Of a stretch of 64,000 nucleotides of DNA, positions 3,182 through 5,178 are shown in pieces. The DNA comes from a virus. The notes under the pieces were generated by a model, which had not been told where the DNA came from, made no database searches, and saw only the letters and a program-made list of their open reading frames with translations. The position numbers were made by a program, and so were the translations under genes. Each line of letters begins with the position of its first letter. The stretch's first letter is position 1. The stretch covers positions 20,996-84,995 of the IMG/VR virus record IMGVR_UViG_3300026488_000019. One strand, 5' to 3'.

Positions 3182-3468
3182 TCTATCACCCTAAACCAAG
3201 TTTGGTTGGAATTCCTAGTGTGTCCACAGTTATCAGGTTTAGAAGATACATTAACAGGAATGTTATCTATGGTAAACCAACTTAATCCATTATCTGTTTT
3301 ACACCTACCATAGCAATGAATAGGAGGTTTAGGACAAGGAGGGTGGGAAGAAACATTATCTCCATTAGTAGCCACTGGTAAACCATCTACAGTAAACCAG
3401 TTCTGCTTAGTATCTACTACTTTCCCTCCAGCCTCATTAGGGTCTTTAAGCCTGCTTATATACATCAT
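3178..3468 (-). CDS. PAAR-like spike tip protein (gp5.4-like)
   Basis: Repeated WFTVDGLPVA / WFTIDNIPV units; His/Cys metal ligands (HPPCP..H, DNCGH); follows the spike gene. Confidence 0.8.
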   Translation of the reverse strand: MMYISRLKDPNEAGGKVVDTKQNWFTVDGLPVATNGDNVSSHPPCPKPPIHCYGRCKTDNGLSWFTIDNIPVNVSSKPDNCGHTRNSNQTWFRVIE

Positions 3469-4013
3469 CTCTTAACCCAAGTAGCTGTAGAAGTTTTAAC
3501 ATAGAAGTCTCCTGCTACATCCCATACAACATCTTTAACTGATTTAATGTAAATAGTTCCATCCTTCTCAATCCTAATTTTTGAACCAGATGAATGATGG
3601 AACTCTACATACTCCTTAGCTTTATTTATCTTAAACCAATTATTCTTCTTATCCCTAAACCCATAAGTTTCAGGGTAGTCTTCATCAAATAAATGTTGAT
3701 GGGTAGGAGTTGACTGGATTTCCCCTATGTAGTAAGGGTTATAAATAGAATCTTCAAACTTAACTATTACATAAGAACCTTTCTCTGGAACTGAAAAGTT
3801 AGAGGAATCAGACCTAGCTCCTAACAGGTTTGGTCTAATAGGATGAACAAAAGGTAAGTGTTTAGCTGGGATACCTTTCCATAAAGGTTTTATCATTACC
3901 TTTATCCTCCCCAACTGGAGAGGGTCTGCGTTTCAGATAACCTCGCCTACCCACAACTTACTTGTTATGTCAAATTTTTCATCTTTCAAAGTATCAGCTA
4001 ATGCTATTATCAT
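3465..4013 (-). CDS. Baseplate central spike (gp5 OB-fold / gpV-like), 182 codons with an in-frame UGA at codon 27
   Basis: ATG at 4013 with GGAGG upstream. Reads MIIALADTLKDEKFDITSKLWVGEVI-(TGA 3933-3935)-NADPLQLGRIKV, which completes the gp5 GxVxxxxDPxxLGRxKV motif. The ORF track starts only at 3914. The C-terminus carries HSSGSKIRIEKDG. Confidence 0.85.
3906..3923 (-). promoter_or_regulatory. SECIS-like hairpin 3' of the in-frame UGA in the spike gene
   Basis: CCUCUCC-AGUU-GGGGAGG; stem +10..+27 and loop +17..+20 after the UGA. Confidence 0.6.
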
Positions 4014-5178
4014 TTTTCTTCCTCCACTTGGGGAAGGTTATATTAAGAGCTTCCCTATTCAGAGTTAAATCTGTTACAATGGATTTAGCTGTAAAATACC
4101 TACAAATCTTAGTTATGATGTAGCTTCCTGTATATAGGTCGTAAAAGTGCTTTTGTTTAGAGTCTATGTCAAACAACTTCAAGTGGTCTAAAACTTGATG
4201 TTTTATAAACCTACCAGTATATCTTATGTTTACTTCCAGTCTTGAAAAGTGCATTAAGTTAGAAAGATTCTTAGATTTAGCATAAACCCAATGCTTATGA
4301 ACATTGGAAAAATCTACTTTTACATAATCCTTTAATCTCAGATGTTCTATATCGTAAATGGTTTTATTATCAGGAACTAATGAGTAGGAAAGTTTATTAC
4401 TGGGTACAATAGGTTTACAGCAGAGCTTATTTTCAGTCTCATTATAACCAGCTATCTTCTTGGTTGATAACTTATTGATAAAACCAGTCCTTGAGGTTAC
4501 TTTTATGTCTCCTTCAAAAATGAAATCCCTAGAGCCTAACTTTTCCTTTCTAGGGAAAGCATTCCAAGGTTCTTGTCCTACTATATAAGGTAAGGATAAA
4601 CATCTAAATCTTCCAAAACTCGTAATTCCTATTAAGTAAAACTCTTCTTCAGATATATAAGAGTTGAGCCAAAGTTCATTTATAAACTTTCTGTTAGGAA
4701 TGTTATACTGAATCCAAGTCATTTTATCCCTAGAACTAGGGAGGACTTGAACTCAGGCAAAATCTTCTTTGGCTACCCTTTCTATAACATAGGAGGAAGG
4801 TTTATCTTCAAAATACCTTATTTTGGATTTATATAGGTAATCAGGCTTTCGTAAAATACCTGATAAAACTACTTCAAAGGTTTCACCAGTTTTGGAATAC
4901 TCCTTTTCTAAAACTAACAGTTTAGTAGTAATAGATTTGGTTTCAGTTTGACCTACTGTTACTATTATTTCAGTTTCCTCAGCTAACCACTTCAACAACT
5001 TTAAGTCGTCTGTTACAAACCTTAACTGAAACTCAGGTAAGTGGTTACCTGTTTTCTCTATTAGTAAGAAGTCTATAAAATTTTCTCTGTTTATAAAGTC
5101 GTGTTTTTCTATCGTTCCATCTTTCCTTCTTATTACAATAGTAAAAAGTAAATACTGCTGGTTTTCATACTTTACCAT
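3994..5178 (-). CDS. Baseplate hub protein (gp27 / late control D-like), 394 codons with an in-frame UGA at codon 142
   Basis: ORFs 4753..5178 and 3994..4722 are in the same frame, joined by TGA (4753-4755) plus 10 sense codons: KEDFA-(UGA)-VQVLPSSRDK-MTWIQYN. The C-terminal YTGSYIITKI motif and the position just upstream of the spike fit a hub. Confidence 0.75.
4727..4742 (-). promoter_or_regulatory. SECIS-like hairpin 3' of the in-frame UGA in the hub gene
   Basis: UCCCUA-GUUC-UAGGGA; stem +11..+26 and loop +17..+20 after the UGA. Confidence 0.6.

Follow-up and report, generated by a model that had tools for sequence, protein, structure and literature searches.

Probable programmed UGA recoding, possibly by selenocysteine insertion, in putative baseplate hub and spike genes of a hydrothermal vent phage

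The window analysed here is a 64,000-nucleotide stretch (bases 20996-84995) of an 84,995-bp phage record in IMG/VR, IMGVR_UViG_3300026488_000019, whose completeness is 96% by CheckV. Two neighbouring genes on its minus strand, encoding a putative baseplate hub and a gp5/VgrG-type central spike, each carry one in-frame TGA (hub codon 142, spike codon 27) with the frame open on either side, as a preliminary description of this DNA had reported. We consider it likely that both UGAs undergo programmed recoding of some kind. Insertion of selenocysteine (Sec) at both codons by the SelB pathway of the host is the reading that we prefer; judged from sequence, its chances approach an even bet without quite reaching it.

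Homology is continuous through both codons. Homologues of the spike align from residue 1 across codon 27 with no gap, and those of the hub span codon 142. All 119 aligned spike homologues and all 148 hub homologues considered (the best 150 of 420 found at E<=1e-3, less the window's own) are uninterrupted at these columns. Most of the 148 are single chains of about 375 amino acids (aa) covering both halves of the window's gene, which under code 11 appears as two open reading frames (ORFs) of 141 and 242 aa. The column at spike codon 27 is mostly Asp (D85 E10 N7 S7 F5 V3 I1 Q1, n=119), bearing out the earlier remark that this position is normally Asp/Asn/Ser-like rather than Cys. The column at hub codon 142 reads V45 F23 T17 P15 I14 L6 M5 W4 N3 A3 K2 Q2 G1 R1 S1 E1 Y1, with 4 gaps (n=148). 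The stretch from each UGA to the next AUG contains residues conserved in the family: D30 (115/119), P31 (104/119) and R36 (116/119) in the spike, and S149 (112/148) and D151 (137/148) in the hub. Bypassing of the T4 gene 60 type, or a small intron, was ruled out by homology that runs without a break, codon after codon, across the UGA and the hairpin described below. Frameshifting was likewise ruled out, the frame being the same on either side of the UGA.

A hairpin follows each UGA. Its previously described features were reproduced at both sites: a stem of 6-7 bp, a 4-nt loop (GUUC in the hub, AGUU in the spike) at +17 to +20, and a 3' side running into GGAUAAA. Both loops begin after 16 nt from the UGA. 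In the hub the 6-bp upper stem stands on a 9-bp lower stem, absent from the preliminary description, which begins at the first base after the UGA. The 85-kb genome was folded as 56,636 segments of 42 nt: the stability of the hub element is matched by 0.46% of them and that of the spike element by 1.4%, and only 8 combine the hairpin geometry with an energy of -12 or less. The spike hairpin is one of 10 on the whole minus strand with a stem of at least 6 bp, a 4-nt loop and at least 4 G-C pairs. For the corresponding stretches of the nearest relatives without interruption, loci L006 and L008, the energies are only -3.6 and -1.5 in the hub and -3.7 and -4.2 in the spike. The hairpins are non-random, lineage-specific and tied to the UGAs. 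The stems are also built partly at the protein's expense, as residues deviate from the consensus exactly where stems form. Spike Gln33 (CAG), which closes the stem, replaces a Lys found in 96/119 homologues, and hub V143-Q144-V145, encoded by the 5' arm of the lower stem, stand where the family has D/E, S/F/T and N (Asn in 106/148). The shared GGAUAAA was ruled out as a separate signal, since it encodes conserved D-K in the hub and I-K in the spike.

The 3' arms of these stems are SD (Shine-Dalgarno)-like (GGAGG and AGGGA), and the genes might instead be split. Translation would terminate at the UGA, the terminating ribosome would melt the hairpin and free the SD-like arm, and synthesis would restart 11-13 codons further on, at an in-frame AUG (hub M153, spike M40); the resulting pieces would assemble non-covalently. 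Beyond the SD-like run in both 3' arms there is indeed an A-rich spacer and then an in-frame AUG. The database gene caller produced these very pieces (P0003, 143 aa; P0006, 242 aa; P0007, 141 aa), hub residues 143-145 are off the family consensus, and the hub break falls in an indel-prone stretch. However, the first two OB-fold strands would be missing from a spike that begins at M40, and so would the invariant D-P...G-R motif, although the sequence keeps it; hub residues S149 and D151 would go untranslated. The AUGs and SD-like runs are by-products of ancestral residues: Met occupies the column of the hub AUG (M153) in 46/148 homologues, and the uninterrupted L006 spike reads G-R-I-K-V-M. With all the hub and spike homologues counted above uninterrupted at these columns, we regard the split-gene account as improbable.

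Consensus constraints on the bacterial Sec insertion sequence (bSECIS) are given in the Figure 2 legend of a 2026 review (PMC13188914): a loop of 3-9 nt on a stem of 4-16 bp, a minimum free energy (MFE) of -7.5 or lower, a G at loop position 1 or 2, with G or U as the usual next base, and a UGA-loop spacing of 16-37 nt. Under our own MFE-based version of the published model, both sites pass all four constraints, with MFEs of -15.0 (hub) and -13.6 (spike) in 48-nt segments. A first descriptor that scored the upper stem alone passed the spike and failed the hub, whose upper stem by itself lies above -7.5. As background, 1329/56,632 segments pass (2.3%), 274 of them (0.48%) with a spacing of 16-19, as do 61/3013 TGA trinucleotides in any frame. 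The joint chance of both sites is about 5e-4 under the loose model and about 2e-5 with the spacing held to 16-19. Furthermore, A-G-U-U is present in both phage loops (in the hub, with the closing A). This favours a SECIS, because a generic roadblock hairpin would not need AGUU.

Elsewhere in this genome TGA is a normal stop. The 108 ORFs of at least 60 aa end in TAA (65), TAG (28) or TGA (15, one being the internal UGA of the hub), with several ATGA overlaps on both strands. None of the 14 terminal TGAs passes the hairpin/bSECIS check, in agreement with the earlier claim that TGA terminates elsewhere without such a hairpin. At the ATGA overlap between the spike and the downstream PAAR gene, TGA terminates normally a few hundred bases downstream of the recoded site. 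Two leads from the preliminary description came to nothing: the whole genome yielded no further UGA-plus-hairpin genes, the 85 kb containing only the two in-frame TGAs, and no tRNA-Sec or UCA suppressor tRNA emerged, ARAGORN at default settings finding no tRNA in the whole record and two low-threshold calls not being suppressors. Genome-wide reassignment of TGA (code 4 or 25, or late-gene recoding with a suppressor tRNA) is effectively refuted by the two in-frame TGAs only, the 14 terminal TGAs on both strands and the lack of a tRNA gene. Both TGAs do lie in late structural genes, where the accessible part of one report describes in-frame stops (TAG or TGA reassigned, suppressor tRNAs) as widespread in gut phages (10.1101/2021.08.26.457843). 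The present case differs in having just two sites, each with a local RNA signal. In addition, conserved Trp is encoded here by TGG, and neither Trp nor Gly is the norm in the homologue columns.

Comparison with other assemblies indicates that the TGAs are not assembly errors. The contig of the source run is identical to the record over 3300-5300 at a depth of 13, evidence that is not independent. Three runs of another study, dated 2025, contain related contigs. In run X2, a 242-nt contig spans 4656-4897, including the hub TGA, with 3 differences. Changes reported for X2 are of the G>A type only, and such a change leaves the T-C-A at 4753-4755 intact; hence the hub TGA is kept. In run X4, a 565-nt contig aligns over 3865-4003 (139 nt) with 19 differences, about 86% identity. 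The differences listed for that contig are those 35 nt or more inside the aligned piece, and none of them is at the spike TGA (3933-3935) or in 3901-3929, which contains the hairpin. As the spike TGA, 69-71 nt from the ends, falls within the listed span, we infer that it is unchanged. Across the X4 contigs, the listed differences fall in 16 spike codons, located before as well as after the UGA; for 11 codons the change is synonymous and for 5 it is not. The spike UGA and its hairpin thus appear to persist over at least about 14% nucleotide divergence under purifying selection. No stem changes, hence no covariation, were seen among relatives that keep the UGAs (one contig per gene).

The divergence of the X4 contig is very uneven: the 139 nt around the spike UGA are 86% identical and include a run of 29 bases without change across the hairpin, and the flanking 117 nt and 252 nt are below the 80% alignment floor. 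A separate 1586-nt contig, present in runs X2 and X3 at a depth of 16-18, matches only 4712..4732 with 1 mismatch (the 3' half of the hub stem-loop) and then runs on as hub-like sequence (W-I-H-P-N); it probably belongs to a more distant hub relative.

Searches in public collections returned no TGA-bearing relative. A degenerate DNA pattern for the TGA-bearing spike motif matched no contig of IMG/VR or the JGI metagenomes apart from the record itself. No close relative emerged from the spike scan of IMG/VR, and a hub scan of the JGI metagenomes gave 56 pattern matches, 0 of them confirmed. Megablast of window positions 3000-9000 against a phage collection gave no match, and a word-indexed spike search with 24 candidates found only the window's own 143-aa fragment. 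At the relatives' loci L006-L010, all TGA-joined open frames are on the non-coding strand and none passes the SECIS check. These results, the origin of the record in a metagenome assembly, and the conservation of the hub TGA in an approximately 99% identical strain only would suit nonsense mutations or assembly error in a defective or minority genome, with the hairpins coincidental. Such an origin is nonetheless very improbable. It would require two neighbouring essential genes to have acquired a stop each and, at an identical offset, a rare hairpin, at the joint chance given above; the hairpins are absent from relatives without the TGA; and the spike TGA and hairpin are kept in the diverged contig of another study amid mostly synonymous change.

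Candidate hosts were sought through two TnpB genes in the window (IS605 OrfB / Cas12f-like TNB). The second is 77-86% identical to copies in vent metagenome-assembled genomes (MAGs) of Desulfurobacteriaceae/Desulfurobacterium (3 genomes), Candidatus Desulfofervidaceae and a 'Deltaproteobacteria' bin. All five candidate genomes have selB above the cut-off, a tRNA-Sec scoring 77-83 bits and a selD with one in-frame TGA; 3/5 also have an fdhA-type gene with a TGA. In the selD SECIS of the three Desulfurobacteriaceae the stem follows the UGA directly, its upper part is rich in G+C, and the loop, at a spacing of 17, has 4 nt (AGUU in one genome, GGUC in two); the fdhA elements of the candidate hosts have GGUCU loops at a spacing of 18. 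The phage spike element (...CC-AGUU-GG...) is built as in the host selD, with a spacing one base less. Both phage elements resemble those of the Desulfurobacteriaceae selD genes. A covariance model from eight host SECIS was dropped, since MAFFT misaligned the fdhA loops and a model from selD only would mostly score selD coding sequence. The earlier idea of an Aquifex-type host with Sec machinery survives in so far as the best candidates include Aquificota (Desulfurobacteriaceae) with selB, tRNA-Sec and selD; the host itself is a candidate only, by way of TnpB. A PolA search returned no host names.

Copies of the second TnpB in the same identity range also occur in hydrothermal Desulfobacterales, and the 'Deltaproteobacteria' bin has many; the gene looks like a promiscuous insertion sequence common to phage and vent thermophiles. 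In one candidate genome (G002, L049 position 687, plus strand), an in-frame TGA beside fdhA lies in a C-A-M-U context, is open on both sides and passes the SECIS check. It may mark a CxxU selenoprotein of the 'Deltaproteobacteria' MAG.

SelB acting with a SECIS is the only well-established bacterial mechanism for reading UGA by means of a 3'-adjacent hairpin. Because of this, and because both sites fit the model, resemble the elements of plausible hosts and share a loop motif, we favour Sec insertion over other forms of recoding, tentatively. In the proposed sequence of events, late mRNA would be translated up to the UGA, where the stem-loop, with its 4-nt loop 16 nt downstream, would act as an in-ORF bacterial SECIS and bind host SelB carrying Sec-tRNASec. 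Sec would be the residue inserted and translation would continue, yielding a full-length hub of 394 aa with Sec142 and a spike of 182 aa with Sec27. The preliminary description had held that the phage uses the Sec machinery of its host. Open frames, hairpins that fit the bSECIS model and Sec genes in the candidate hosts speak for that proposal; the homologues do not.

The following results weigh against Sec. Cys in homologues, the usual signature of Sec, stands at the UGA columns in 0/119 spike and 0/148 hub homologues. In IMG/VR, the spike motif occurs with GAY in at least 119 contigs and with TGY in none. According to the accessible text of the 2025 deep-Sep paper (PMC12013277), homologues with Cys are by now available for every known selenoprotein. 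Hub and spike, moreover, are structural, non-redox proteins. The bSECIS model is loose, with the pass rate given above. The 16-nt spacing is its lower limit and 1-2 nt shorter than in the elements of the candidate hosts, and the hub loop GUUC departs from the host NGUN pattern unless the closing A-U pair opens to give AGUUCU. On the window, Rfam at the gathering threshold reports a group I intron only; at E<=10, positions 3700-4900 give five chance-level matches, none at the hairpins. Conservation of the hub UGA has been seen in one nearly identical contig only. As to the host, the shared TnpB reads as a clue and not an identification. A spacer/prophage DNA search of window positions 1-20000 against the five MAGs gave 0/5, which is uninformative since the MAGs are incomplete, and when GTDB genomes were scanned for prophages using the gp6-like alignment, none of 434 pattern matches was confirmed.

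Several of the same features would suit readthrough without SelB, the main rival explanation, which we consider unlikely though well worth keeping in view. Here the hairpin, 9-10 nt after the UGA, would stall or strain the ribosome, and a near-cognate tRNA (likeliest Trp, or Cys, Arg or Gly) would outcompete RF2, giving a set, low fraction of full-length hub and spike. The homologue columns tolerate many residues and never Cys, so that it seems to matter little which residue is inserted. The spacer is of a length fitting for a structure at the ribosomal mRNA entry channel, and such entry-channel structures are established for eukaryotic viral readthrough and frameshift signals. A throttle would also be sensible for the low-copy centre of the baseplate. 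Conversely, readthrough requires neither the AGUU common to both loops nor the fit to the SECIS loop rule. The fourth bases are G and A, not the C of the UGA-C context, which is leaky. To our knowledge, no bacterial or double-stranded (ds) DNA phage UGA readthrough driven by a simple 3' hairpin without SelB is known, and literature searches at title/abstract level found none. Precedent for an essential minor virion protein made by low-efficiency UGA readthrough does exist in the RNA phage Qbeta with its A1 (readthrough) protein; Qbeta readthrough is mentioned in the accessible part of a recoding review (PMC8310308).

Qbeta differs in several respects. Its A1 protein extends a complete coat protein at the natural stop. 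In this dsDNA phage, the UGA lies inside a folded domain, two proteins are concerned, and each site has a SECIS-like hairpin.

In contractile baseplates of the T4 type, hub and spike have the lowest copy number of all parts. The purpose that we prefer for an inefficient recoding step in each would be to throttle these two proteins, to tie virion assembly to the selenium state of the host, or both. As a bolder option, and an improbable one, Sec142 and Sec27, three each per virion, might lie near enough for diselenide or selenosulfide staples or a selenium-lined metal site. Links of this sort would, unlike disulfides, hold in a hot, strongly reducing, sulfidic habitat, lock the spike to the hub and make assembly selenium-dependent.

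Among known systems, the closest in form are the in-ORF SECIS of bacteria, with E. coli fdhF as prototype and selD and fdhA of the Desulfurobacteriaceae and Desulfofervidaceae MAGs as further examples. They share with the phage sites a UGA followed by a stem-loop with a small G-U loop and a G+C-rich upper stem; the hub lower stem starting at the base after the UGA, a spacing within 16-37 nt and the AGUU loop of one host selD extend the likeness. The phage elements differ in their carrier, in serving structural proteins without Cys homologues and in the slightly shorter spacing, and their binding of SelB is only predicted. Poxviruses offer a precedent for a virus relying on host Sec machinery, with the glutathione peroxidase homologues of molluscum contagiosum and fowlpox virus, the SECIS of fowlpox virus being located within the coding region (PMC8310308). 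Those viruses infect eukaryotes, and the proteins are redox enzymes that they captured, with Sec as a catalytic residue, whereas the proteins considered here belong to the baseplate of a bacterial virus. The accessible part of that review names only the poxvirus selenoproteins, and Qbeta for readthrough. No phage-encoded natural selenoprotein was found in the literature searched at title/abstract level, nor in the accessible parts of PMC8310308 and PMC13188914; the lists behind BSepDB and deep-Sep lay outside this scope.

Should recoding prove SelB-dependent, the hub and spike would be selenoproteins of a new kind, structural and phage-encoded, with Sec at positions that are never Cys. They would break the Cys-homologue rule by which current selenoprotein finders filter, and they would indicate that a virus can evolve a SECIS anew within conserved coding sequence, twice. 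Should it prove SelB-independent, the hairpins would be a bacterial signal for UGA readthrough of a sort that we have not found described. Either way, this is a testable case in a dsDNA phage of baseplate dose or assembly being gated by local stop recoding rather than by frameshifting or reassignment, and a warning that annotation pipelines split such genes.

Coordinates of the features discussed are collected in Table 1. The minus strand carries genes from 1 to about 38 kb of the window. PAAR, gp25-like and gp6-like proteins are encoded downstream of the spike, and a gp53-like protein upstream. The order hub, spike, PAAR is that of T4 gp27-gp5-gp5.4. The spike here is without a lysozyme domain, the hub is without a detectable gp27 sequence match, and the T4 genes have no internal stops.

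Table 1. Features of the window (positions of the 64,000-nt stretch; minus-strand features read from high to low, except where given otherwise)
Feature	Coordinates	Strand	Details
Putative baseplate hub gene	5178..3994	-	ATG at 5178; in-frame TGA 4755..4753 (codon 142 of 394); terminal TGA 3996..3994
Hub 41-nt two-tier stem-loop	4752..4712	-	-15.0 kcal/mol (RNAfold)
Hub upper stem	4742..4737 / 4732..4727	-	6 bp; loop GUUC at 4736..4733
Hub lower stem	4752..4744 / 4720..4712	-	9 bp
gp5/VgrG-type central spike gene	4013..3465	-	ATG at 4013; in-frame TGA 3935..3933 (codon 27 of 182); terminal TGA 3467..3465
Spike hairpin	3923..3906	-	7-bp stem 3923..3917 / 3912..3906, 5 G-C + 1 G.U; loop AGUU 3916..3913; -12.1 kcal/mol
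PAAR-motif tip protein	3178..3468	-	Pfam PAAR_motif, E 2.1e-5; start overlaps spike terminal TGA (ATGA)
TnpB gene, first	51235..52749	-	IS605 OrfB / Cas12f-like TNB
TnpB gene, second	53477..54895	+	IS605 OrfB / Cas12f-like TNB
UDG-exonuclease-PolA fusion polymerase	59021..61720	+	89% identical to that of an 88.7-kb IMG/VR relative
Complete group I intron	16330..16752	-	Rfam RF00028, 106 bits (gathering score 50)

The spike identification is supported by several matches. Residues 19-110 match phrog_430 (E 7.8e-17), tblastn finds 51 phage records, the best alignment covering residues 1-169, and a profile of 60 spike sequences matches T4 gp5 (1K28, E 1.1e-11) and several VgrG chains. The window's protein by itself scores 13.9 bits against Pfam Phage_base_V, under the cut-off. 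Together with the matches to solved spikes, an N-terminal OB-fold with a G-x-V...D-P...G-R-V-K-V motif places it in the gp5/VgrG group, and codon 27 falls within G-x-V-[VI]-X-N-x-D-P-x-x-L-G-R-[VI]-K-V. The hub label is putative and is based on gene order directly upstream of the spike, as in relatives, on size and on a lead from the ESM Atlas, in which the named clusters nearest the hub are GpP/Gp44-like, Phage_GPD and XkdQ/YqbQ (score 0.96, to be taken as a lead only). None of 61/61 members of the hub family scanned has a Pfam match, comparison of the hub with PDB chains by sequence, gp27 included, gave no credible match, and the PHROGs that match it are all of unknown function.

The sole run containing all sampled words of the record carries the habitat label hydrothermal vent metagenome; no RNA data sets containing this stretch are listed. 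In three IMG/VR contigs of the same phage family neither gene is interrupted, the hub having 369 aa and the spike 171 or 202 aa; relative to this phage, their gp6-like protein is 63-67% identical and PolA up to 89%. With the 88.7-kb relative of Table 1, hub and spike identities are 44% and 51%; the replication module appears conserved, and the baseplate centre fast-evolving or exchanged. The group I intron sits between ORFs 15453..16376 and 16724..17680 in the head module.

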